Below, piece by piece: positions 16,464 to 48,130 of a DNA stretch of 48,175 nt (position 1 is its first letter; every line of letters begins with the position of its first letter). Origin of the DNA: Eledone cirrhosa (lineage: Eukaryota); assembly GCA_964016885.1 (NCBI GenBank), contig CAXHJY010000691.1, positions 1 through 48,175 on the forward strand, read 5' to 3'. The position numbers were made by a program, and so were the translations under genes. The notes below the pieces were generated by a model, which was not told the DNA's origin, searched no databases, and was given only the letters and a program-made list of their open reading frames with translations.

Positions 16464-17472
16464 AAAAGCAGGTTTTGCTTTGTTTAAGATAGTTGCATGT
16501 ATTTGCTGCTGACCACTGAAATGTCAAGCAGACGACTCTAATCGTCCGTATCATTCCACAGATCTATAAATAGATGTGTTAAATACCAAATTGGATGAAA
16601 TGTCACCACACTTAACATTAAATAATAAGGAATATATTTCACGATTTAATCGAGTCGAAGTCAAATGGAAACTTTCATGTGAGACCAAAACTGTGTATGT
16701 GAAAGGATTGGAAATGATCTCGACATTCGATGTATTATTGATATAAACTACGCTATGTTGATCTAGTTGCTGTTGCTCCATCTCGGGTCAATTCAAAGGT
16801 CTATAACTACAGGCGTTCCCGTCTTCTATTACGACATAGTGTGTCTAAAAAGAAGCCGATTTTTGGACTGAACCAAGGAAGCTATGTTTCCATTAGTATA
16901 TCCATTGCTGAAGCTATCTTCCAGTAGCAACTCCTAGCAGAAGTCACTGTTTGTTCGATATCAGGAGGTGATATTTGAAGACATACTTAGAAAGCACAGA
17001 GCCGAAACAGATACAAAAAAGCATCCTGTCAACCAATCTATCTGTCCGATACAGGTACGCTGTTTATGAACCCCGAAAGAGTGAATCACACAGTTGATCT
17101 CAACGGAATTTGAACACAGAGCGCAAAGAACCGGAAGAAATGCGGTTATAAACAAGCTCTTTTGTAACAAATATTGTGACCTTCTCATTGACTATGTGCT
17201 TCCTCTTCGTTTGGATTTTGTTTTATTTACTCCATCTTGCTTTATATATGTAAGTTAAGACAACTTGAGGCTAGAAAAGCGAAACTGACGGGATCTGAAA
17301 CATGCCCTTATTGCTTGCTATGAGACCATATTCAGAAACACACTATACAATGCCTGACAAACCTTTTGTGCCCAGTTGTGTACATGAGTATATTTTTTGT
17401 TCTAATATTTCATTTTAATTTAATTTTATTTTTTTTTAGATTTTAACTGCCATATTTATGTCTACAGATAAT

Positions 17473-17580
17473 TGTTTCTACTATTGGCACAAGGCCAGAA
17501 ATTAACCAGTACATTACTGGTACTTTATTTTATCGACCCCGTATGGATGAAAGGCAAAGTTAACCTCGGCGGGATTTGAA
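17473..17580 (-). mobile_element. 5'-truncated SINE, main family, 11-bp TSD
   Basis: CTACAGATAAT at 17462-72 and 17581-91 flanks the core and tail. Confidence 0.88.
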
Positions 17581-17727
17581 CTACAGATAATAATGGTTAG
17601 TTACATAGCATAGAAGTGCACGTTACAAGCTATATATATATATATAAAACATGAGAAGAAAGAAGAATACTGCGTGGTTGCACATAGGTTACATATGATA
17701 AAAAAAAGTCCTTCGTATAATCATAAT

Positions 17728-17894
17728 TGTTTCTACTTTAGGCACAAGGCCAGCAATTACCCAGTGCATTACTGGTACTTTATTTTATCGACCCCCGTAA
17801 GGATGAAAGGCAAAGTCAACCTCGGCGGGATTTGAACTCAGATCGTAAAGGGACGTAACTATGCTGGAAAGCATGGCGTCCGACCCTCTACCGA
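17728..17894 (-). mobile_element. SINE, main family, 12-bp TSD
   Basis: TATAATCATAAT at 17716-27 and 17895-906; nearly identical to 27145-27295. Confidence 0.9.
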
Positions 17895-18010
17895 TATAAT
17901 CATAATAATACGCCAATTGTATTTGTATGTTTGTATATATATATATATGGCTTCGGCCTGTCGGCTGGAACACATCATAGAGTAATAGAGAAATCCCCGT
18001 AACTCTATAA

Positions 18011-23539: not shown

Positions 23540-23735
23540 TTTCTAATTTATACACAATGCCAGCATATGTGGGGGAAAGGGTAAAGTTAATTAAATGGAC
23601 CCCAGCATTTGATTGGTACTTTATTTTATCGATCTTTGAACGATGAAAGGCAAATATAAGTTCCACATGATTTGAACTCAGAATGTAGAAAGCTGGAATA
23701 AATACTGCAATGACGCTCTACCAATTTTGCCAACC
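23540..23735 (-). mobile_element. Degraded SINE, main family
   Basis: TGGTACTTTATTTTATCGA...GATGAAAGGCAAA...ATTTGAACTCAGAA. Confidence 0.75.
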
Positions 23736-23974
23736 CTCATATTTTAATGATACCCTTTTTTATCTACTATCCTATCAAAGTATAATTTATACAATTTATT
23801 CAGATGTCATATTGTATGGTCCTGTAACTCCTCATAGAGTCGGAAAGGAACTGTAGTGGCATTTTTAAGCCTTGCGGAGCCCATCTCCGCTCCAAAAGTC
23901 TGAACATAACGGATTTCTTCCGAAGAAGGATAGAAAGTGAGAGAGATAAAAGTAAGAAAGATATATAGTGGAAG

Positions 23975-24135
23975 AATCAAGCCCAGTACTAGATTGGTAC
24001 TTTTTTTATCGACCTCGAAAAGATGAAATACAAAGTTGACCTCGGCAGGATTTGAACTCAGACAGCAAACAGTTGTAACGAATACCGTAAAGTATTCTAT
24101 CCGACGTTCTAACGATTTTGTCAATTCATCACCCA
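23975..24135 (-). mobile_element. Degraded SINE, main family
   Basis: TGGTACTTTTTTTATCGACC...AAAGTTGACCTCGGCAGGATTTGAACTCAGA. Confidence 0.78.
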
Positions 24136-24837
24136 TCAGAAATCATATACCATGGATCATATTACTATCTAACATAGATAACTCACCAGTTGTTTTAAAA
24201 TTAGCTAATGACAATTGTAATGTGCTGTACATAGAAGACGTACGGCAAATTTTCAAAATTTATTTTAGGAAGAAATTTACCTCTCCAACTCCGGGAAATA
24301 TGGTAACGCATAGTAATTTTACAATAAAATGTGGTTATTATGAGACGCATGAAACAGTTTAAGTTATGGGTTTCACTACATTCATTGAAAAACATTAATT
24401 ACTTGGTTAATTGTATATTAGCTTGTATAATAATTGTGTTTTTCTAAATGATAATTACCGCATCTATAGGATTGTTGAGAGCTGTAATTATACTTTTGGA
24501 CTATTATCAGTCTGATATGAGGTATATAACTGATTTAAGGACTAAACATTGTAATTCTTACACTTCCTGTTTAGTGCAAGGCTATATTCTGTTTGAGGAT
24601 TTTGATATTTTATTGCAGTTATTAGAACTTGTTAGAATGGCTATTGTTGATTACACTAGGTTTTTCTTATCTACTTCCTGATTGAGGACATTTCAAGGAT
24701 AGAGAATTTAAATACAAACTTTAATAACATCGAAAATTTTCCCATGATAATATCGAAAAATTTCAGTGTGGAGAACTAACAACGTAGTGATCCCAAAATT
24801 ACGCAATGAAAGAAATACATTCATACATACATGATCG

Positions 24838-25090
24838 CACTCCGTCGTTTACGACGACGAGTGTTCCAATTGATCCGATCAACGGAACAGCTTGCTTGTG
24901 AAATTAACGTGCAAGTGGCTAGCATTCCACAGGCACGTGTACCTTAACGTAGTTCTCTGGGAGATTCAACGTGACACAGTGTATGACATGACTGACCCTT
25001 CGAATTACAGGTACAACTCATTTTTGCCAGTTAAGTGAACTGGAGCAACGTGAAAATAAAGTACCTTACTCAAGGACACAACGCGCCGCA
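24838..25090 (-). mobile_element. SINE of the third family, 5'-truncated
   Basis: Minus strand GTTGTGTCCTTGAGTAAGGTACTTTATTT (typical post-tRNA SINE core); homologous to 13910-14075 and ~13553-13650. Confidence 0.7.
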
Positions 25091-25139: not shown

Positions 25140-26400
25140 AGTAGCTCGATTTCTCCCTAGCTCGTGTGATTTCAGATGGTTGACAAATCCAGTTCCGAAA
25201 GAAATCGGCCACAAACATTGCACTTCAATTCCTATTGGATTTTGCAGGCATTGCACTTGGGTCCCGTTTACGAAACAAACACTTCAAAACAGCATGGTCC
25301 ACTCGCTTTATTCTCAAAGATATCACATTCATACTCGATTATCATTCTCCATGATATACGACCTTCAGCCAGTCTGCCAGTTCTCCATACCAATCTTCAG
25401 AGCTTTAAGATTGTCTTTTATGACATCCCTAAACCGCTTCTTTGGTTTATGCTGTGGCCTTTTTTCTCGGGTCAGTTCCCTATGAAATAACTATTTAGGC
25501 AGCTTTCCACCTTTCATCCTGACCACATGACCAGCCCAAAGTATCTGGTTATAATAAACCTCCTCTCAATACTGGTTCTACCCGTTTTCTCAAGTACCGC
25601 AGCATCAGGTGTGAACAACTTGACGTCCAGGATGCGTCATATACAATGCTCTTCAAACCTTTCTAACTGTCTGGTGTGATGCCTGTAATTTGTCCACGTT
25701 TCGCATCCAAAGAGAAGGGCTGTAAGAACACAGGCTTCATAGACAGAGAGCTTCGTGCTTTTTGTGATGCCTCGGTCTGACCTGACTCGTTTCTCGAGCT
25801 TCCCAAAGGCAAGACTTGCTTTCGCAATTCTGTGATCTATTTCAGCATCGAGGGTACCATCTCTTCTAAGTGAACTTCTGAGATACACAAAGCTGTCCAC
25901 CACTTCAAGTCTTTTTTCTCTTACAAAAATGTCTGACTCTACATACACTTCCCCAGCTGGTGGAGTGTACACGACCGTTGTCTTTTTTCTACTAATATTT
26001 AGCCCAAACACAGTGTATGCATTTGAGAAGATGTTCAATATCAACTGCATGTCTTCTACAGTGTGTGCCACAAAATCTGCATCATCATTATACCGGAACT
26101 CCCTGACAAGAGTGCCAAAAGTTTTGGACTTGGTGTTAAACCGTCTTTGATTAAAGACTCTGCCAGAGGTTCTAATTCGTAAGTATACACCAATTTTGAA
26201 GTCTTGGAAAGCATATGTCAGCAGCACGGCGAAGTAGTTGAAAAACAAAGTGGGTACGGGTATTTCACCCTGCTTGACACAGTTTTCCACTGAAAGTGTC
26301 CCACTGAAGTCCCCTTTTGCTTTCATATTATGATGGAATTTTTTTAATATTCCAACAAATTCATGAGGGCATCCAAGTTTCCCGAATATGACTCACAATC
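25140..26400 (-). mobile_element. 5'-truncated RTE-clade LINE (RT C-half, C-terminal region, C2H2 knuckle), degraded
   Basis: ORF 25637-26326: VKQG..P.PTLF...GVYLRIRTSGRVFN.RRF...YNDD...FGLNISRKKT...FVYL.S.L...EIDHRIAKAS.AFGKL...TKLSVY..CVLTALLFGCETW. Downstream broken frames give WAGHVVRM...LPK and KCNVCGR...NHLKSH. Confidence 0.92.
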
Positions 26401-27144
26401 TTCTAATTCAAGGTAGTTGTCTTATTAATGCTTTCCGAGAATGTGTTTGACAATTAGATCAAACGATGGGCATGCATAGAACTTAGTATTGTGCATTGTA
26501 TCTATGAAACATGAATCTTGTTTTTAATTCTTGATTTAAGTTTTCCCGTGCTTGATCCAGTGAATTTACTGCATAAGTACCCAAAGCAGAAACTTTCTTT
26601 GTTCAATATCTCTACAAAACTTCTTCACCAGACCAAGCTTGATATATAAAGGTCACACAGTGTTTTTGTTTATGTTTTGTTTCTTGTTTCAACCACAGTT
26701 TAGATGTTAACGTTTTTTTTTGTTTTGTTTTTTCGCTAACAATTAATTATTTTCTGAAAGGTTAGTCTTTTCTCAATTGCTGATCCTCTTTGGCTTTGCT
26801 CTACAAAAGAAATAGACATTTTGTGTAGCTACTTTGGTAACCAAGAAGAAAGTTCATCTTTAAGGTTTATACAAATCACCTGCTGGTGACCTTAGTACAT
26901 TATCTCCCCAAATACTTGAGTGATTGTTGCATATCCCCCTTTCATATTTGAAAAGTCATTAATTGAAATTGAGCCATATTTGTTGCTGTTGCTTAGAACT
27001 AGTAATAAAAGTTAACATACATTTGGCATGTATTTTAATTCACCCATGTTCACCAGAAAGCATCTGGAATCAATGCACAATGTTAAGGGACATCTACATG
27101 GTTGTTTAGCCTGTTAAAATTGCAAGGAACTCTTCTTCAAATAA

Positions 27145-27295
27145 TTGTTTCTACTTTAGGCACAAGGCCAGCAATTACTGGTACTTTATTTTATCGACCC
27201 CGTAAGGATGAAAGGCAAAGTCAACCTCGGCGGGATTTGAACTCAGATCGTAAAGGGACGTAACTATGCTGGAAAGCATGGCGTCCGACCCTCTA
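27145..27295 (-). mobile_element. SINE, main family, 11-bp TSD
   Basis: TCTTCAAATAA at 27134-44 and 27296-306. Confidence 0.9.
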
Positions 27296-28706
27296 TCTTC
27301 AAATAAAACCCCACCATCATAAAGAAAGGGGACACATTAGAATATAGTCATAGATACCCCTACAAAGACGGTATAATCACAACTGAAATTACTTTGATCA
27401 TAGTTTGCTTGATCATGGTTTATCTGGAGCCAAACAAGAGAAAAGCAATAACAGCAGCAACATAGAGCAGTAAATCTATTTTCCTGCTACGGTGATAAAT
27501 AGATTAAATTAAATTTATTATGTCTGTGCAAGATCGCAAATAATTACATGATTTAAGTATAAAAATACTAATTTATAGATATAAAATCCTGCCTAACGTA
27601 TTCTTCTAATATGTATTTCACTATTAGTGACTGTTAATACGAAACATTAAACTACGTTGCATGTGGAACTATTTTTAGTACCTTTATAAGAAAACATTTA
27701 ACCGAAATTTGTCTTTCATTATAATTCATGTTCAAAAATTTGTCTTAATTAAATTCCATCAATTTATAAATCACAAACAATAAATAGACAGTTACAAATA
27801 AATACAAATAAACAACAAATGACTACTTTAAATTCAATTTCTTAATTGCTTTTAGATAAACTTTGTCAGCACTACTAAAATATCAAGAAAAAAATACAAA
27901 ACGAAACAAACATGGTAACCAAAATGGCGCAAAATTCAAATTTACATATATAACTATTTTTTTATGAAATATCTTTACTGAAATAAGAAATAGCATTCAT
28001 CAAAATGCAAATTAAATTATGTTTACAATATAACAGCTAAATATGCAATGTTTTATGTGTTGAATCAGTTTATAAAGACCAACTTATACCACGATAAGTC
28101 GCATAGCATCCACTCAGAATGATAGACTAGGGTCCCTAACATCAGCACACTAAGGGATATATCAGCATATAAAAAAGTATACTGTATTTCAAAAGCTAGA
28201 GCTGGTAGAGGGGAAATTGGTGGTATATTTGAAATTAGTGTCACAAATCTACCCAAGGATATATATAATTTTGAAAGCGCTAGAATAATTTTCTCTGTGT
28301 GATCATTAATAGAGATCTGCTTTCGCACACATAAGCACAGTAGCTATATATAACCAGTACAAACAAAGAAGAAAATGCTTAGTATTTAGAATGCATATAT
28401 TTAAGTGGATACATTTTAACATATACTTACTATTCTGAATCGCTGTTAGCCAGAAACCCGGAATAGTAAGTACGTTACATTCTCAACTGATGTTCTGTAA
28501 ATTATATTAAATTAAGATGTATTCTTTGTTAGAAGCTTGAATTATTGTGAGATCAGGATAACGTTTCTCCTCACCCCAATTCAGCAATGGGGTCTTGTTA
28601 TATAATTAATATACATTAGTTATTTAGTAAAACAATATTTTTATAGCACTTGATTGTTGAATTAGCAATATTTATTTCAAGTCCAGCAGTCATTATTTCT
28701 ATCCTT

Positions 28707-28894
28707 GGCAGTGGATTGGCAGTATCGGTAGAGGGTCGGACGCCATGCTTTGACGCATAGAGTTATTTCCCTTGCCATTCTGAGTTCAAATCCCGCCGAG
28801 GTTAACTTTGCCTTTCATCCTTACGGGGTCGATAAAATAAAGTACCAGTAATACACTGGGTAATTGCTGGCCTTGTGCTAAAAGTAGAAACAAA
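28707..28894 (+). mobile_element. Full-length SINE, main family, 13-bp TSD
   Basis: TATTTCTATCCTT at 28694-706 and 28895-907; very similar to 14973-15159. Confidence 0.92.
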
Positions 28895-29031
28895 TATTTC
28901 TATCCTTGGCGGAATGCTCTTGAAGAAGCTTAGAATGTAAAGAATAGGGAGGAAATTTATGAAATGGATAAAATACTTTGCGATCGAAAAACAAATTTAT
29001 GAACGTGAAGGAATGCATCACACCAAGAACC

Positions 29032-29074
29032 ATTGTTAACAGCTGCATTCCACCAACTGGTGTCATCAGATAAT
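29032..29074 (-). ncRNA. Degenerate hammerhead-like motif (A15.1>U)
   Basis: Minus strand: ATTAT-CTGATGA-CACC agtt GGTG-GAAT-GCAGCTGT-TA-ACAAT; stem I pairs at 4 of 5 positions. Confidence 0.35.
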
Positions 29075-30599
29075 TTCCTTCTGTTACACATCTGAGACTA
29101 ATCGAATGAGTTGAAATGATCTGTGACCGAAATTCTTTTTTTGTTTTCATGACATAGATCACCTAATTAAATAGATTCATACACAATGTCTTCGAATGAA
29201 TTACTGCCCAAACAATCACCCTAATTGAGCGTTTCTTTTAATAAAACAAACTTGAGTATTTGCGACACTGCAAGAGACAACATACAAAAACCTGGCAACT
29301 GTATTTTACAAGACTTATAGTTTATATGAAAGATCGTGTCATACCAGAGAAGCAGAACAGATTTGATAAGCCAAGAATCGATGTAAAGAATAGTTATTGG
29401 TAATCAGTTTGCTACTGAAGACTGAAAGTAAAGTAAAATATAATATAAATTAAAGTAAACGGATTACTGAAAAACATTTGATAGGGTTTCGAGTATTCGG
29501 ATATAAGAGAGAGGGGGAAGTCTATAAAAAAAAGCTCCCTTATTACATAATATAACAATTATCATCAACAAGAAATGAACACTTTTATACCACAAAATAC
29601 TGAAGATCTAACATGAAAAAGAAACATAAGAGTATTTTTCAGGGGGAATTTCATTCCTAATGTCACTGAACCAAACGACTCGTGGTTTCAAAGAATATAT
29701 ATAAAATATATGTAATCTTCTGTATATGGATGATTTGAAATTGGGGACAACAGCCAGCTAAGGAATTTGGATACTAGACTTAATTTGCCGTCCAGAGTAA
29801 CACCGGGTTAATATTGGCTGCCTTTAGTGAAATTCACTCTATTTCAAATGTTTGGAGCAGACTTGAAGATAACCCATGAATCGATAACACCATTAAAATT
29901 ATAGGTGAACTTTGCCTACTAAGTTCGATTTAGACACTGAATTCAGAGATATAAAACAGGAATATTCACTTACATAATATAAAATATGATTATAGAGGAT
30001 GTATGTATAGTATATTTGGTAATATACAGTATGTTTAATTAAAAACATTTAGAAGACCATTCGCTATCAGTTTTAAAGTAGTGACTATGTCACTTACTTA
30101 TATCTTCGGCAAAGGCTGGGAGAGTAGCTGACAGCTGTTTCTCGCTACTTGGCGTTTATCAAAGCCACGCATTCACCTGCCTTTGCCGAAAATTATAGAA
30201 GCTGGATTCTTATAGAATTCCAGTAATAATCAGGAGCTGATTATACAGAGCGATTGCCGGTCCAGCAAAAATTAAAAATTTGGATTGGTGCTCTGAAATA
30301 GCGATCTATACGAAAAAAAAAAAAAAAAAAAACATAATATGTATTTGTACATAAGATGTGAGTAAATATGTATGTTGGTACAGAAGGAATACCCACGTAA
30401 TATCAAACAATCTCCCCCCCCCCACACACACACACACGCACACACGCATGCGCGCACGCACGCGCGCGCGGTATACGTTTCACGTATTATTTTTAATCTA
30501 CCGTACAATTAGCGAATTCTGTGTCTTTTTTGCTAGATCTGGATGACGCGAAGGTGCCTATGACATTTGGAGTCCTTCTGTGACTGATGTAACTAAAGC

Positions 30600-31310
30600 T
30601 ATTGATGCTCAATATAAACTGTTGCTGGTCGCCAATATGCGTGATGAATAGAGAGGCGATTAAGTTTATCCAATTTGATTCGTCAAATTTCTGAGCACAA
30701 ATCCTGACATGTCAAATTTAACTTTTATCTCTCCAGTAAAGATATGAGGCCAACCAGTCCGATGAACAGCTGCTATTGTAGTAGCAGTAGAAATGTTGTC
30801 AGAGGCTGCTACAACATGCCTGTCAGCGACTTTATGCCTGTCAAACGAGTGGTCTTTTACTGGATGTGGTCTAAGGCAGACATGTCAAACATGCGGCTCG
30901 CGGGCCGCATGCGACCCTTTACAAGCACACCTGCGGCCCGCCCAAAGGTTTTTACAGCGCGAGCGTAATATAAAATAAAAAAATATTAGTTGTAATGTTG
31001 CGCAATTAGTTGTCATGTGTGGTCCTCAGACAACACATATGTCACCCATGTGGCCCTCGGAGGACCCTCAGTTTGACATGCCTGGTCTAAGGTGTTGTCA
31101 ATGTCGCAGCAGCACACCATTGTAGAGGGTCGGAATTTGTCGAGGTCTGAATTATTTTCTGGCTCTGGAGAAAAGGTTTTAGCCATGTTTAGGATGAACG
31201 TTCGCCATGAGAGATCCTGAGTAATAAGGAGGCCTAGCATTCAGAACGAGCACAATGGCCTTTCTAATTGCGTGCTGTTCAGGCTTAAGAGTAGTGTGAT
31301 ACATTGATGT
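30600..31310 (-). mobile_element. Old LINE RT C-terminal fragment interrupted by a hAT MITE
   Basis: MLGLLITQDLSWRTFILNMAK at ~31178-31240 matches the LG..I..DLSW..HI..IAK motif that follows the RT domain. Boundaries are approximate. Confidence 0.5.
30877..31084 (+). mobile_element. 208-bp non-autonomous hAT (Charlie/Buster-like) MITE
   Basis: TIRs CAGACATGTCAAAC / GTTTGACATGCCTG (13/14); perfect 8-bp TSD GTCTAAGG at 30869-76 and 31085-92 with central TA; subterminal ATGCGGCTCGCGGGCCGCAT near-palindrome. Confidence 0.93.
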
Positions 31311-31386
31311 TTTAATTCCATACAAACACCGACACATACATTGAATATAAATGTTGTGTTACAAATAGTACATTTATATAGAGTTG

Positions 31387-31496
31387 CAAATCCCGCCGAG
31401 GTTGACTTTGCCTTTCATCCTTACGGGGTCGATAAAATAAAGTACCAGTAATGAACTGGCTAATTGTTGGCCTTGTGCCTAAAGTAGAAACAATTA
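31387..31496 (+). mobile_element. 5'-truncated SINE, main family
   Basis: CAAATCCCGCCGAGGTTGACTTTGCCTTTCATCCTTACGGGGTCGATAAAATAAAGTACC...GTAGAAACAATTA. Confidence 0.88.
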
Positions 31497-31849
31497 TTTT
31501 CCTATAAATTGCCCACCGATCGAGTCATCTCTTTCCTGAACAATGCCGGGTACTACTGCTATTATATAAATATAAACAGCGTGCATATAATCTATATACT
31601 CACATGTACATATGCATTATAATTGATTTAAGATATATGTACATATGTTTGCATGCATACATAATAATCGTGCATACATATCAAGTAATTAATAAACTCC
31701 CTGCCTACACACAATACACACCCACCGTGTGTGTGTGTACTAGTATCTATTAATGTATACGTGAGTGTATCTGAGTATTTGTTTCTCTGTACAAGGAAGC
31801 TTTATAAGCAGTGAAAGTGATATCAGCATAAAGACCTTTTTTTCGGGCG

Positions 31850-36459: not shown

Positions 36460-36569
36460 TATAGATAAGTATTGAAGTTTCCGTTGAAAATTGAAAAAGT
36501 CATAGGAGTGAAGAGTGCTCTATGTAAGTACCAGAGCAAAATTTAATGTATAATAAACAATACAATATA

Positions 36570-36645
36570 ATTACCTCATTACCAGAGGTTTCCCGAATAA
36601 GACGAATACGAAAAACGTCTTCATTCGTTCGTCGGACAAGGCAAT
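36570..36645 (-). ncRNA. Family H4 hammerhead, U4>C mutated core
   Basis: ATTGCCTTGT-CCGACGA-...-GAAACCTCTGGTA-ATGAGGTAAT. Confidence 0.55.
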
Positions 36646-39243
36646 TTAAAACAGTGAAATATTTGAAAAGTCTCCTCAAGAAATGCAAGAGTTTAACGGG
36701 CAAAAAAAATATAAATAAAAGTAATGCAAAGGATATATAAAAAAATAAGGAAATATAGTTAGGGTATGTGTATATGTATGTATATACACTCACAAATGTA
36801 CATATGTGTGTATGTACAAATGCATGTGTATGGTGAAAATGTGTGCGTAAGTACATATATGAGGGCAAGTATATTTGTGTATATGTGACCACAAATACGT
36901 ATATAATATGAGTTGAAAAAGAAATTGTAAGATAAAATAGTTAACACGCATCCAGATACAGGTATTAAATACACATACGAGTATGAAAGCTCGCGTATAA
37001 AGACACATACACGCACGGTCACTTATATGCGGAAGATAAAGAGGGAAGGGAGTGTAATAGTAAAAAGAAGTGTTATTCTCGATATATGTATAAAAATGAA
37101 ACAATATATGAGAATGAAAAAATTGTTTAAATCAAAGAGAAAGTAATCAATTAACACTAGAGAAAAGAAAACAAACATAGCTACGGACGTATATAAAAAT
37201 ATTTATACACACAAATACGTACAGACAAAAGCGCATGCATGCGTACATACATACACACGAGGCACGTATATATATATTGCCACATGTATATCTAATCACA
37301 CGTACGTACGCGACTATATATATACATATATACATACACACCCATACATACATACATATACATATACACACATATACATACACATACACTTACATTCGCC
37401 CGCATACGCACACACGTATAAATATGTAAAATACATAGATATAAAAAAACATAGATATAAAAACACACATACACACACATATATATACGTACGCACGCAC
37501 ACATACGGAGGCGTTCGTATACATATACAGAACGTATACACACATAAGCACACTCACACACATAGATACAGATTATAAACCAGCCATATGAATAAATGAG
37601 TACAAATATAAAATCGGCTGCGAAACAACAGAATATATCTGGAGTGGAAAACGCAAGTGACATGTAATATCAGGTAGTAAAAGAAAATGGGGAAGTAAAA
37701 TGTGGAATGTGAAGATATTAGGTAAATGAATCGAAAAGTAGGGGGGGGGGTTACTGGTGGATGTGAAGTAAAAATAAAAATAAAATTAAAAATAAAGTTA
37801 AAAATGAAAGTAAATCAGAAAGAGAAGTCTGTAAAGAGGATAATTTAAGGAAAGTGAAGAATAAGAGTTTATGGAGGATAAGTATCTGAAAGTGAGTTAA
37901 GTTTATATGAGCTGGAAAGCCTGCCTAAATACAAAATCAGAAATTTTCACCAGAAACCACACTTGCTTTCCAGTTCATATAAACTTAACTCACTTTCAGA
38001 TACTTATCCTCCATAAACTCTTATTCTTCACTTTCCTTAAATTATCCTCTTTACAGACTTCTCTTTCTGATTTACTTTCATTTTTAACTTTATTTTTAAT
38101 TTTATTTTTATTTTTACTTCACATCCACCAGTAACCCCGCCCCCTACTTTTCGATTCACTTACCTAATATCTTCACATTCCACATTTTATTTCCCCATTT
38201 TCTTTTACTACCTGAACCACATGTCACTTGCGTTTTCCACACCAGATATATTCTGTTGTTTCGCAGCCGATTTTATATTTGTACTCATTTATTCATATGG
38301 CTGGTTTATAATCTGTATATATGTGTGTGAGTGTGCTTATGTGTGTATACGTTCTGTATATGTATACGAACGCCTCCGTATGTGTGCGTGCGTACGTATA
38401 TATATGTGTGTGTATGTGTGTTTTTATATCTATGTTTTTTACATACTTATTTATACGTGTGTGTGTATGCGGGCGAATGTAAGTGTATGTGTATGTGTAT
38501 GTATATGTGTGTATATGTATATGTATGTATGGGTGTGTATGTATTTATGTATATATATAGTCGCGTACGTACGTGTGATTAGATATACATGTGGCGATAT
38601 ATATATACGTGCCTCGTGTGTATGTATGTACGCATGCATGCGCCTTTGTCTGTACGTATTTGTGTGTATAAATATTTATATATATATATATGTGTGTACG
38701 TGCGTACCTATGTTTGGTTTCTTTTCTCTAGTGTTAATTGATTACTTTCTCTTTGATTTAAAAATGTTTTTCATTCTCATATATTGTTTCATTTTTATAC
38801 ATATATCGAGAATGACACTTCTTTTTACTATTACACTCCCTTCCCTCTTTATCTTCCGCATATAAGTGACCGCGCGTGTATGTGTCTTTATACGCGAGCT
38901 TTCATACTCGTATGTGTATTTAATACCTGTATCTGGATGCGTGTTAACTATTTTATCTTACAATTTCTTTTTCAACTCATATTATATACGTATTTGTGGT
39001 CACATATACACAAATATACTTGCCCTCATATATGTACTTACGCACACATTTTCACCATACACATGCATTTGTACATACACACATATGTACATTTGTGAGT
39101 GTATATACATACATGTACACATACCCTATCTATATTTCCTTATTTTTTTATATATCCTATGCTTTACTTTTATTTATATTTTTTTTTTCCCGTTAAACTC
39201 TTGCATTTCTTGAGGAGACTTTTCAAATATTTCACTGTTTTAA

Positions 39244-39318
39244 ATTGCCTTGTCGACGAACGAATGAGGACGTTTTTCGTATTCGTCTTATTCGGGAAAC
39301 CTCTGGTAATGAGGTAAT
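39244..39318 (+). ncRNA. Family H4 hammerhead, 1-nt core deletion
   Basis: ATTGCCTTGT-CGACGA-...-GAAACCTCTGGTA-ATGAGGTAAT. Confidence 0.5.
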
Positions 39319-39382
39319 TATATTGTATTGTTTATTATACATTAAAAGATATAGATATAGATAATTGTATATAAATATATAT

Positions 39383-39990: not shown

Positions 39991-39992
<2 letters not shown>

Positions 39993-42160
39993 TGCCAACA
40001 CTATCTGAGCAATGCTGATGGAATATTTTCCACATCATGCAGATAATGTAGCGCTCACGGCGACGTTGGAGAGAATAAAGTTTGAGTTTTTCTAGTCGAA
40101 TCCAATAGTCAAGGCCTGACATGCGATCTATCTTTTTCGTGATTGACCTTTGAGGAACTTCATTTTTCATGATACTTCGTTTCGTATGGGGAGACCACAG
40201 TGGAGAACAGTATTCAAGGTGGGGTCGGGCAAAAGCGGGGAAGGATAATAATGTGGATATCCCTCGACTGGAAGGTTCTGAGAATCAAGGAACACATTCT
40301 GTGAGCCATGTCAACTTTGCTGTTTATATGAATGGCTCAGCTTATGTTGTTGTCCACAATTACTCCCAATTCTCTGATGTTGTTGGCTACCACTAGAATT
40401 TCACCTGAAGGAAGGGAGTATGGGAGTTTCAGGGCATCCTCTTTTCCAAAGGGGATTAACACAAATTTATTCTCGTTCAGCAGCATATTGTTCTTTTCCG
40501 CCCATTGGATAAAAGCCAGTAGATCTGATTAGAGGCATATCCGGTCACCCACGCCATTGATGACTTTCTGGAGCTTGGAATCATCTGCGAAGATTGTTAT
40601 GCTGCTCTGCTTGATGATGTCAGTAATGTCATTAATTTAGATAATGAAAAGAAGTGGGCCCAACACAGTGCCTTGTGGGACACCGCCACAGACTTTGGCT
40701 GAGCTGGATTTTTCTCCTTCGACTACAACATGTTGGGCTCTGTTTGACAGGAAACACTTGATTCACTGCAGCGACTTTCCAGTGACACTAATGTTGGATA
40801 GTTTTCTCAGTAGAATGTTATGATAACCCTGTCAAAGGTCTTACTGAAATCAAGGTAGATGACATTAGTGTTGGAGCCCTCTCCATCAAAGTGATGCAGT
40901 AACTGCGTTAGACAATCCATTCCATTACGGAACCCATGTTGGTTGGAGTTCAGCAGATTGTTGCTTTCAAGAAAGTGAATTATTCGTGATCTCACCACCC
41001 TCTCAAATACCTTAATGATATGAGAGGTGAGTGAGATCAGACGGTAATTCACGGCAAGAAATTTGTTTCCCTTTTTGAAAACTGGGACAACAGACTGGGA
41101 TAGTAAGTTTTCTGGTATATATCCAGCATCCAGTGAGTTTCTCCACAGATTAGCAAGCAGGGAACCTATCGGGGCCTGCTGCTGAATTGTGTTTAGTTTC
41201 TTGTATTGCCGCTAAGACATCAGGGGCGTCAAACATTATGTCCGATATGGTGTGTTGGGGATTAACATCACTGATACAGCTCAGATCAGCCATATCAGAA
41301 TTGGTGAAAACTGAGCAGTATTGTTTCTGCAGTTTCACCCATTATCTTGGAGAGTGCCATTTTCATCAATTAGAGGGCCAACAGTGGAGTCAGTGACTTC
41401 GTGTTTTTTTTCGCAAATGAAAAGAACACTTTGGGATTGTGTTTGATTTTCTCAATGACCCTGGCCTCTTCAGCTGCTCTTTGATTGTTGATGATGGACA
41501 TCATGCTGTTTTGGAAGTTGTATTTTTTAGATTCCAGTCAAATGGGTGTGTTGCTGCTGGCAGTATTTCAGTTTGTTGACTTTTTGCTAATTCTTTTAAT
41601 TTTTCTGATAAGTGTTCTTCTATTTCTAGAGATTCTACACTTAGATTTGTTTACAGATCTTAATGGGGTATTTTTTGCACATATATTTGCTACATTGTCT
41701 ACAAATGTCTGCCAGGATTTTTTTTATGTTAGTGGGTGTGTGTGAGTGTACGTGAAAGACCAATCGACATGTGCAAGATCATGATTGATCGCTTCCCAGT
41801 TTGCATTATGAAGATCCATGGTGTCAAACGGATGAACTGGAGAGATGTCATTGGGTTTGCTTTTTGGACGGTGGAATCTCAGATCTCAGAGAACCATGTG
41901 ATGGTCTGAGAGTAGAGTGTTTTCCACTGCAATATTGTGGATAGTGTTAGTGTGGTTACTGAACATTAGGTCCAAGATGTGGCACCTTGTTGGTTTGAGC
42001 ACAAGTTGGGACAGGGAAAGCTCATCCATGAAGTCAAGAAGCGATTCTACTGCCTCCTTGCCAGGGGTTGAGGTGGAAAAACCTGGTATCAAGCTGTTTG
42101 TGGACCAGTAAACACCGGAGAGGTTGAAGTCCTCCAATATTAAGATGTTGTCAGGGTGAC
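39991..42160 (-). mobile_element. Degraded CR1/L2-group LINE ORF2 (APE C-half, linker, RT); truncated at both ends
   Basis: [11 protein letters not shown]...PTR.HILDLMFSN...LSDH; NYRLISLTSHIIKVFERVV...NQHGFR; YLDFSKTFDRV; FADD; KLYSLQRRRERY. Many stops and frameshifts; paralogous to 44316-47320. Confidence 0.92.
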
Positions 42161-44315: not shown

Positions 44316-47300
44316 AACTTTGATAACTTTGATAGGTTTCGGCTAGTATTGGCCCAGGTCATGTCTAACTTAATAGCACCACCTGGCGAAGTCTTACAAA
44401 TCAGTGTTTGGGCACCAGGGCCCACTCGAGCAGGGAGTTATTTTTTACGGAGGCATATCCGGGTGTAGGAGGCTTATCCAGGATTTCTTGAAGGAATTTA
44501 TCCAAAGACTTCTTGAACTTGATGGGGTCTGCCTCTGCTTTGATGTGTCTTGGTGTAATGTTAAAGAGTGCAGGGCCAATTGAGGTGAAATAATTGTGCC
44601 GTATTGTGATGCGAGTGGGATTTTTGTCCTGGGCAGATAGCACGGGGCCCAAGCCTTGGGTGTACACTAAAGGTGATGCCAACATAATTTGGGCTAAGCT
44701 GATGGAATATTTTCCACATCATACAGATAATGTAGCGCTCACGGCGACGTTGAAGAGAATAAAGTTTGAGCTTTTCTAATCGACTCCAATAGTCAAGGCC
44801 TGTCATGCCAACTATCTTTTTTGTAATTGACCTTTGGGGTGCTTCAACTTTCATGATACTTTGTTTCGTGTGGGGTGACCACAGTGGACAACAGTATTCA
44901 AGGTGGGGTCGGGCAAAAGTGGAGAAGAGAAGGACAACAGTGTGGATATCTCTCGACTGGAAAGTTCTGAGACTCCAGGAACACATTCTGCGGGCCATAT
45001 CAACTTTGCTGTTTATATGAGTGGCCCAGCTTATATTGTTGTCCACAATTACTCCCAGGTCTCTGATGTTATTGGAAGCCACCAGAGTTTCACCCGAAGG
45101 AAGAGAGTATGGTAGTTTCAGAACATCTTTTTTTCCAAAGTGGATTAGTTCAAATTTATCCTCATTCAACAGCATATTATTCATCTCTGCCCATTGGATA
45201 ACAGCCAGTAGGTCTGACTGAAGGCAAGTCCGGTCACCCATCTCATTGATGACCCTTTGGAGCTTGGAATCATCTGCGAAGATTCTGATGTTACTGTGTT
45301 TGATGATGTCAGTAATGTCATTAATGTAGATGATGAAAAGAAGTGGGCCCAACACAGTGCCTTGTGGGACGCCACTGCGGACTTTGGCAGGGCTTGATTT
45401 TACTCCTTCGACTACAACATGCTAGGTTCTGCCTGTCAGGAAACATTTGATCCACTGTAGTAACCTTCCAGAGACACCAATATTGGATAGTTTTTTCAGT
45501 AGAATCTTATGATCAACCCTGTCAAAGGCCTTGCTGAAATCAAGATAGATGACATCAGTGTTGGAGCCCTCTCCTAAGGCTCTCAAAACATCGTCAAAGT
45601 GATGCAGGAGCTGCGTTAGGCAGTCCCTTCCATTACGGAACCCATGTTGGTTGGAGTTCAGCAGGCCGTTGCTTTCAAGAAAGTGGGTTATTCGTGATCT
45701 CACCACCCTCTCAAATACCTTGATAATATGAGAGGTGAGTGAGATCGGACGGTAGTTCACTGCAAGGGACTTATTTCCCTTTTTGAAGACTGGGACAACG
45801 GACTGGGACAGAAAGTTTTCAGGAATATAGCCAGTATCCAGTGAGTTCCTCCACAGATTAGCAAGAGGAGTTGCAAGTTGGTGTCGACACACCTTCAGGA
45901 CACAAGCAGGAAACCTGTCGGGGCCTACTGCTGAATTGTGTTTAATTTCGTTTATTGCCGCTAAGACATCAGGGGCGCCAAACGTTATGTCTGATATAGT
46001 GTGTTGGGGGTTAATATCACTGATACGGCCCAGATCGGCCATATCAGGGTTGCTGAAAACAGAGCAGTATTGTTTCTGCAGTATCTCGCCCATGGTTTTG
46101 GCATTGTCCTGGAGTGTGCCATTTTCATCAACTAGGGGCCAACAGTGGAGGCGGTGACCTTGTGTTTTTTAGCGAATGAGAAGAACACTTTGGGGTTGAG
46201 TTTTATTTTCTCAATGGCCCACCTCTCTTGAGCTCTTCTCTGGTTATTGATGATGGTCACCATGCATTGCTGGAGGTTATATTTTTTTGACTCAAGCAGA
46301 GTGATAGCCATTGAATGTGTGTGTTGCTGTTGGCAGTATTTTAGTGAGTTAATTTTTTTGTTTGTTCTTTTTATTTTTCTGATAATTGTTTTTCTGTCTT
46401 GGGGGATACTGCACTTGGTTTTTTTCACAGGTTTTGGTGGGGTGTGTTTTGTACATATATTTGTGACAGTGTCTACAAAGATCTGCCAAGATGTTTTGAT
46501 GTTGGTGGAAATGTGTGCGTGTGTAAAAGACCGGTCGACATGTGATAGTTCGTTCATAATTGCATCCCAGTTGGCATTGTAGAGATCCATGTTATCAAAT
46601 GGGTGGGCTGGAGAGAGGACCCTAGGATTAGCTTTCGGCTGGTGGAATCTCAGGTTACAAAGAACCATATCATGGTCTGAGAGAAGGGTTTTTTCCACTG
46701 TAATATTATGTATAGTGTTAGTGTGGTTACTAAACACTAGATCCAGAATGTTCTTCTGATGCCTTGTTGGTGCAAGGACAAGTTGTGACAAGAAAAAACT
46801 CATTCATGAAGTCAAGAAGTGACTTGACAGCCTCTTTGAAACAGATTATGGGTGTTTGTGGTGGCCTATAGAGCCCAACTAATGTCAGGTCATTGGCTTT
46901 ATTGTGCACAGTGACTGATTCACAGTAGCCATTAGAGAATGTTGTGTTGCCATCTGCCGTAAAGGAAATCATGGCAGTTCCACCCTTCCTTCTGCCAACA
47001 CGATCCGCACGGATGGTTGTGAAATTTCTCACTCTTACTTCGGCCACCAAGTGGGAGTTGTCAAGGTGGGTCTCAGTAAGAATGAAGAAGGTGGTGTGAA
47101 ATGGATGGTTACCAACCCAACCTCAATGAATTAGATCTTCCGTTTCTGTGCATTGATGGATGGGCTAATACCTTGTGTATTGAGTAAAAATGTGGAGGCT
47201 AGTATAGTGGCTGGTTTTGACTGTTGAAGGGGGCTTGTTTTGTGATTGTGTGTTAGTGACAGCAAGGTTGGTGTTGGGTGATGGCCTAAAATGTTTTTCT

Positions 47301-47317: not shown

Positions 47318-47320
<3 letters not shown>
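44316..47320 (-). mobile_element. CR1/L2-group LINE: near-complete ORF2 (APE endonuclease and RT) with 3'UTR and tandem tail
   Basis: LLNTQGI; FILTETHL; RADR...KGG; LYRPP; ILDLVFSN; SDH; NYRPISLTS; YLDFSKAFDRVDH; SGVPQGTVLGPLLF; FADD; PHLEYCCPLWSP; stop at 44401. Tail is (ATCAAAGTT)x2 at 44316-33. Confidence 0.95.
44401..47200 (-). pseudogene. LINE ORF2 split into ORFs 46730-47050, 46132-46803, 45422-46093, 44561-45355 and 44401-44685
   Basis: Consecutive domain fragments separated by frameshifts and a stop. Confidence 0.9.
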
Positions 47321-47662
<342 letters not shown>

Positions 47663-47793
47663 GTGAGGTTTTTTTTACAAAATGAAAAATAACCGAGGTG
47701 TCCTACACGAGTGGAAGTATAAAGAAAAAGGGATGAAATCGAAAATGCAACTGAAGTCTTATTTTTTTTAAAAATATATATATTTATTTGATT

Positions 47794-47831
47794 CCTTTAC
47801 CGGTTTCGCAGTTCTTCTGCTTTTCAAAAGG
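47794..47831 (-). ncRNA. Mirror copy of the family H5 hammerhead
   Basis: Exact reverse complement of 47907-47944. Confidence 0.7.
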
Positions 47832-47906
47832 TGAGTTGAGATGGAGGGTCTGTGGTTTTTCTCACATCTGATGTGAGAAAAACCACAGACCCTCCATCTC
47901 AACTCA

Positions 47907-47944
47907 CCTTTTGAAAAGCAGAAGAACTGCGAAACCGGTAAAGG
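47907..47944 (+). ncRNA. Minimal type I hammerhead (family H5) with compensatory U3-A8 core pair
   Basis: CCTT-TTGAAAA-GCAG aagaa CTGC-GAA-ACCGGT-A-AAGG; G10.1-C11.1 pair, palindromic stem III, GUA triplet, AATAAA at 47950-55. Confidence 0.72.
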
Positions 47945-48013
47945 AATCAAATAAATATATATATTTTTAAAAAAAATAAGACTTCAGTTGCATTTTCGAT
48001 TTCATCCCTTTTT

Positions 48014-48020
<7 letters not shown>

Positions 48021-48112
<92 letters not shown>

Positions 48113-48130
48113 CACATATACATACATACA
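48021..48130. repeat. (TA)n microsatellite
   Basis: Read directly from the sequence. Confidence 0.95.

Follow-up and report, generated by a model that had tools for sequence, protein, structure and literature searches.

A perfect palindrome in a genome assembly raises the question of whether it is a genuine feature and, if so, what kind of element left it there and by which route. The question arises for the window considered here (the whole 48,175-nt stretch of DNA that was analysed), in which the sequence-only reading had described a perfect 303-bp palindrome with 151-bp arms and a one-nucleotide loop. This description was borne out: the arms, at positions 47718-47868 and 47870-48020, are exact reverse complements of each other (151/151) around the single centre base T47869, and outside of microsatellites the window has no other perfect palindrome with arms of at least 14 bp. 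No coding frame was found within the unit. The palindrome was also said to be embedded in (TA)n, which is correct for the right side, where the array follows directly, but not for the left side, where 60 nt of unique sequence (47658-47717) intervene. Both flanks share the same C-only polarity, which would be expected of an insertion into a single array, while a mirrored left flank would show G. The pure (TA)n runs beside the unit are 71 and 77 nt long and would mask any target-site duplication. The coordinates of all features are collected in Table 1.

Table 1. Features of the palindromic unit and its flanks, with positions in the window (a dot marks features to which no strand is assigned).
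Feature	Position	Strand	Observation
Left flank, (TA)n array with TACA interruptions, likely insertion target	47319..47657	.	20 C and 0 G on the plus strand
60-nt 3' extension (tail), left copy only	47658..47717	-	Present in family contigs or reads of 4/4 runs mapped
Left repeat copy, sense minus, 5'-truncated at 47870	47718..47870	-	Ordinary copies match through 47870, then shared upstream sequence
Minimal type I hammerhead motif, left copy	47794..47831	-	Predicted cut after 47798
Head-to-head junction at a 3-nt mini-palindrome native to the element (CAG in its sense orientation)	47868..47870	.	Unbroken family alignment to 47870
Right repeat copy, sense plus, tail-less, ends at TATA into (TA)n	47870..48020	+	Mirror position 47718 is a family end
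Minimal type I hammerhead motif, right copy	47907..47944	+	Predicted cut after 47940
AATAAA hexamer	47950..47955	+	Mirror at 47783-47788, minus strand
Right flank, (TA)n array with TACA interruptions	48021..48130	.	7 C and 0 G on the plus strand

The left arm and its tail were used as query for a search of public sequencing runs, which returned 14 carriers among 19 rows, from 10 studies. Five of the listed runs contain half or more of the query words, and no RNA run is found among the listed carriers, which is neutral on expression. Four of the 19 listed runs (X1, X4, X5 and X17) were mapped onto positions 47658-47905, a stretch which starts at the outer end of the tail itself and which none of the pieces listed covers in full; runs X8-X14, with small word shares, were left out. 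Run X1 may be the source sample, X4 has another organism label, and X17 consists of raw reads from another study with the species label of X1. The pieces placed on this stretch amount to 4091 contigs for X1, 75 for X5, 8 for X4 and 2280 raw reads for X17. These numbers, which are not a copy number, show that the arm is an abundant repeat. Pieces fitting both arms (846 contigs of X1 and 518 reads of X17) can supply depth right of the centre.

The limits of the two arms can be read against the other copies of this repeat. At least 42 contigs of X1, at least one of X4 and at least 475 reads of X17 run past 47870 into one shared upstream sequence, known from 30 letters, and the palindrome centre is therefore a truncation point. 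Since the family copies align unbroken up to 47870, the loop base T47869 is native to the left copy, G47870 is common to both copies, and the two overlap by one base on the native CAG. At the opposite end, family copies stop at 47718 and continue into (TA)n in at least 37 contigs of X1, at least two of X4 and at least two of X5, and this position is the exact mirror of the end of the right arm. The 60-nt tail stretch also belongs to the repeat family, being covered in X1, X4, X5 and X17. Some X1 pieces cross the palindrome centre with gaps (record 7, with a depth of 183 and 8 gap letters, and record 8), and X1 also has joints skipping 31 and 43 nt, as expected if other copies carry inverted junctions of their own. 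Of the 8 contigs of run X4, several match the minority alleles of the window exactly, and one crosses the centre into ordinary upstream sequence.

The palindrome had also been described as carrying, on both strands, a minimal hammerhead followed by a polyA signal, and the two parts of this claim fared differently. The motif can be parsed as a type I hammerhead with a 4-bp stem I, a U3-A8 core, a 4-bp stem II with a 5-nt loop, GAAA, ACCGGT and a GUA triplet, the palindromic ACCGGT taking the place of stem III in each arm. Each motif reads outward from the palindrome centre, from which it starts 37 nt away, and lies 76 nt from the tail-less end and 136 nt from the tail end. With a type I hammerhead descriptor the window gives only two matches, 47907-47944 (+) and 47831-47794 (-), in agreement with the presence of the motif on both strands. 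The same descriptor matches 5 of 20,000 dinucleotide-shuffled arms, a figure which is optimistic since the descriptor was composed after the motif was seen. Variant rows are rarer in the hammerhead core (1 in 29 nt) than outside of it (30 in 140 nt; Fisher p 0.019), in a comparison of rows that are not independent and from which the zone 47757-47798, skipped as repeat and including the 3' strand of stem I in the left copy, was left out. Rfam gives no hammerhead at gathering score in the window, and at E values up to 10 the 46 weak matches within 47650-48030 include no hammerhead either and consist of miRNA and sRNA models matched through the hairpin, all of them below gathering score. The hammerhead region does not fold better than shuffles (z -0.53). 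The calculated energies are +0.7 kcal/mol for the active monomer, -18.9 kcal/mol for an active dimer formed via ACCGGT, -12.8 kcal/mol for the two best monomers and -20.3 kcal/mol for the best dimer. These values fit a motif which would work only in pairs, and for the ribozyme of the unit no activity is predicted in the monomeric state; dimeric hammerhead cleavage is reviewed in PMC6765202, as far as the available part of that text goes. The G10.1-C11.1 pair is present and the palindromic helix III is suited to dimers. As for the polyA signal, AATAAA is indeed found after each hammerhead but it also arises in 1969 of 10,000 shuffles of its AT-rich stretch, so that it is no evidence of such a signal, and this part of the claim was rejected as chance.

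These observations raise the question of which type of element the repeat derives from. We are highly confident that the 303-bp unit is a real inverted stump of a Penelope-like element (PLE). It consists of two 5'-truncated, head-to-head copies of the hammerhead end of the abundant repeat, likely a PLE pLTR, which likely arrived in one recent insertion into (TA)n. Since no RT or endonuclease frame is linked to the arm family, it is the architecture that carries the identification. In the available portions of PMC3846280 and PMC8557442, insertions of endonuclease-positive PLEs consist of a 5'-truncated copy joined head to head with an inverted one; only one end has a tail, the target is AT-rich or a microsatellite, and a hammerhead lies near the 3' end. 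The unit likewise has a hammerhead-bearing terminal repeat in a microsatellite target and a 5' truncation with an adjacent head-to-head inverted copy. According to the same portion of PMC8557442, an inverted 5'-truncated copy with an optional tail of 30-40 bp is typical of PLE insertions, and the text of PMC3846280 available to us reports palindromic head-to-head junctions. Here the tail is found on the left copy only, and the tail-less end is common to other copies of the family. The unit differs from those insertions by the absence of a coding part and by its tail of 60 nt, which exceeds the published range. It also differs from Pen2a_Av, which in the part of the literature accessible to us has a 15-bp overlap and an inverted pLTR that is 37 bp shorter, whereas the unit is nearly perfectly symmetrical with a one-base overlap. 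The earlier proposal of a very young head-to-head pLTR product is supported and corresponds to a published PLE structure. The layout is already in print and the unit is a real feature of a known kind; it has no coding frame and was likely dead on arrival.

The hammerhead itself can be compared with those of known PLEs. The core boxes of minimal PLE hammerheads (C3-G8 or U3-A8; GAAA; UH) are present together with helices I and II. In the sections of Cervera and De la Pena 2014 (PMC4209133) at hand, U3-A8 minimal hammerheads are described, as well as dual motifs on opposite strands, 100-700 bp apart. The minimal PLE hammerheads of that study are of type I with a short helix I, and share with the unit the U3-A8 core, the G10.1-C11.1 pair and a palindromic 15.2-16.2 region. 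In the same sections such opposite-strand hammerhead pairs, 100-700 bp apart, are reported for Schistosoma mansoni; helix II has 7-8 bp in S. mansoni and 4 bp in the unit. The unit also lacks the extra base between positions 9 and 10.1, which the same sections list as recurring and which lies outside of the descriptor. According to what is available of PMC8557442, the Hydra-clade PLEs resemble the unit in having (TA)n as target, a copy in inverse orientation and hammerheads on the two strands, and Penelope-13_HM in particular has a 5'-truncated inverted copy with a hammerhead on both strands. The Hydra rows available from supplement S2, however, have a CTGA core and a stem III of 3-4 bp in 26/26 cases, while the unit has TTGA and a 2-bp stem III. 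As the U3-A8 core occurs in 0/26 of these rows, the unit was not filed under the Hydra clade. The Hydra-like element present in the window was considered as parent of the arm and rejected, the two having no sequence match.

A coding partner for the arm family (RT and GIY-YIG) was not found within the unit, in metagenome and viral scans or in a search of the supplement of PMC8557442. Six short motifs, five from the unit and one from the Hydra-like element, gave no match in that supplement, in which line breaks may hide a match. The exact 27-nt motif had no match in the metagenome scan, and a looser motif pattern was met at five metagenome loci and one viral locus, all six of which were set aside as chance, being found in DNA of 46-61% GC with no further likeness. 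We found no description of the arm family in the literature, and it may already be catalogued in Repbase or Dfam, which were outside that search. PLE families of an octopus genome are listed in PMC13282606, with no mention of palindromes or hammerheads in the part of the text available.

A second head-to-head pair is found about 10 kb from the unit. It belongs to an unrelated PLE, spans 36542-39346 with its centre at about 37942, and has arms of about 1.4 kb in which 1334 of 1360 aligned bases are identical (98%; 26 mismatches and gaps). Because its arms have diverged, this older pair is not a library fold-back. Its centre is asymmetric, the right copy being about 45 nt longer, and each arm has a long-stem hammerhead-like motif, the core of which is altered in both. 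At the outer end the right copy stops in microsatellite, whereas the left copy continues beyond the corresponding point, an extension being thus present on one copy only.

The single locus matters little, as its layout was already published, but how PLEs make the inverted copy is unsettled, the choice being between self-priming and priming on both target strands. We favour the latter route for the 303-bp unit, with about an even chance of being right. The element's endonuclease would cut both strands of a TA-rich target, and from each target 3' end an RNA of the same kind would be reverse-transcribed. One cDNA would begin at an outer start site and thereby carry the 60-nt tail, while the other would begin at an inner start site, TATA, and have none. 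Both would terminate about 37 nt past the ribozyme in the upstream direction and be joined at the native CAG via the one-base overlap. The preference is due to the two RT start sites bounding the tail, which would give one tailed and one tail-less arm directly. The available part of PMC11167929 describes in vitro work with a purified PLE protein, which cleaves both strands of the target, extends them and begins reverse transcription at two sites bounding the tail; insertion in that system did not need ribozyme cleavage. The weakness of two-strand priming is that two independent cDNAs must stop within one base, which calls for a stop hot spot, of which there is only a hint. Stops at 47867-47869 into TA are seen in at least 181 reads of X17 and at least one contig of X5, and may represent few loci.

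Self-priming is the main rival route, possible but more doubtful. One tailed cDNA would fold back at the native mini-palindrome and copy itself, and the copy would be cut or joined at TATA on the tail boundary. This would account well for the one-base loop on native sequence and for the 151/151 identity, which includes minority alleles (e.g. G47731, at a position where 85% of the X1 depth is A). It is also how the available text of PMC3846280 reads the palindromic head-to-head junctions of rotifer PLEs, and in the portion of PMC8557442 at hand the tail is explained by the endonuclease resolving the intermediate. Priming by fold-back would however depend on just one base pair closing a one-base loop, and the centre of the older pair is asymmetric, with one copy longer than the other. 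The in vitro extension of both target strands, with two start sites bounding the tail, also speaks against self-priming, within the limits of the part of PMC11167929 cited above. As the family is young and counts thousands of copies, with a sharply defined tail boundary and junctions of several kinds, a genome-wide tally of junction symmetry and of shared private variants could separate self-priming from two-strand priming.

A fold-back artefact of the library or assembly, an option already raised with the first description, is very unlikely. The perfect symmetry would be in line with it, and the long (TA)n arrays at both sides invite misjoins. A fold-back would however have copied the tail and the left flank, while the right arm stops at the tail-less end of the family. 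The right flank has the same polarity as the left one instead of being mirrored, and is followed by unique sequence. A diverged pair with the same layout is also present in the same window. The small probability kept for an artefact is due to the exact 303-bp junction, across which no piece from an independent run is found among the pieces listed from the four mapped runs. Perfect palindromes thus need not be artefacts in microsatellite-rich assemblies.

It had also been suggested in part that the palindrome is a mobile unit in its own right, of MITE-like or retrozyme-like kind, which moves as a whole of 303 or 363 bp and whose hairpin serves as a ribozyme switch; this is very unlikely. The X1 contig crossing the centre at a depth of 183, compared to 8-20 for other listed pieces, could be a repeated palindromic form, and the hairpin would be very stable. 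The 8 gap letters of that contig nevertheless mean that its centre differs. Other joints skip 31 and 43 nt, and many copies are non-palindromic. Copies cross the centre into non-mirror sequence (the X1 contigs and X17 reads counted above), and the centres of the inverted pieces differ, so that the common palindromic body and termini of a MITE or foldback element are not found. There are no tandem monomers, and there is no promoter in the 37 nt between centre and ribozyme. Animal non-LTR retrozymes are, like the unit, short, non-coding, hammerhead-bearing and pLTR-related according to the available part of bioRxiv 10.64898/2026.07.22.740005, but the same part defines retrozymes as tandem forms, i.e. 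arrays, while the unit is a single head-to-head pair with no tandem array at the locus. As regards the proposed conformational switch, the read-through RNA of the palindrome is predicted to form a hairpin of 150 bp (-252 kcal/mol). This follows from the symmetry, as it would for any perfect palindrome, and is hence no evidence of a switch; the kind of motif present would moreover need a dimer. Whichever strand is transcribed, the antisense arm comes first, so that in read-through RNA the ribozyme would be enclosed in duplex as soon as it is made. It is equally improbable that the family is a mass-amplified non-coding mini-PLE with a preferred RNA 5' stop ~37 nt upstream of the ribozyme, in which palindromes would recur and some be re-mobilised whole, with the hairpin holding the ribozyme off and the dsRNA leading to editing or silencing.

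The window contains several other repeats. A third copy of the element forming the older pair is found at 7912-9434 (-). At about 9066-9398 it retains the remnant of an endonuclease C-terminus, with CxxC, E, N and CxH, and about 1 kb beyond the stop, on the downstream side, it has a hammerhead at 8003 (-) that looks intact and has the core CTGACGA. For the endonuclease remnant, a first homologue search scored none of 24 candidates and a representative search gave 2864 relatives. No Pfam family was assigned to the remnant, and a weak Pfam GIY-YIG match (E 0.05-0.07) was obtained for 2/6 of its relatives. The long relatives P0072 and P0131 encode a PLE-type RT with Hydra-clade motifs, namely RWK (P0072), DKT and CxCx5-6C. 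Of the three copies of a further repeat (9378-9813, 11591-12116 and 5732-6245), the first lies directly against the 5' truncation of the PLE remnant. The segments 9378-9813 and 12026-11591 form an inverted pair with 98% identity, at a distance of about 1.8 kb.

A decayed LINE occupies 44400-47300 (-), with endonuclease-like and RVT_1 frames, and a partial copy that is 80% identical is found upstream, at 39991-42060; each of the two is interrupted by TA arrays or lies next to them. This LINE (APE/RT, 44.4-47.3 kb) was also considered as parent of the arm, but no link was seen, and it lies beyond the TA array. A fragment of the RT of another non-LTR element is present at 25637-26392 (-) (RVT_1, E 0.004). 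Finally, a SINE-sized repeat of about 120-200 bp, which may resemble an octopus SINE and which, with the TA/CA microsatellite load, would suggest a cephalopod host, is found in a dozen or more copies with 72-96% identity, within 14331-15168, 16275-17902, 23540-25012 and 27134-31501.
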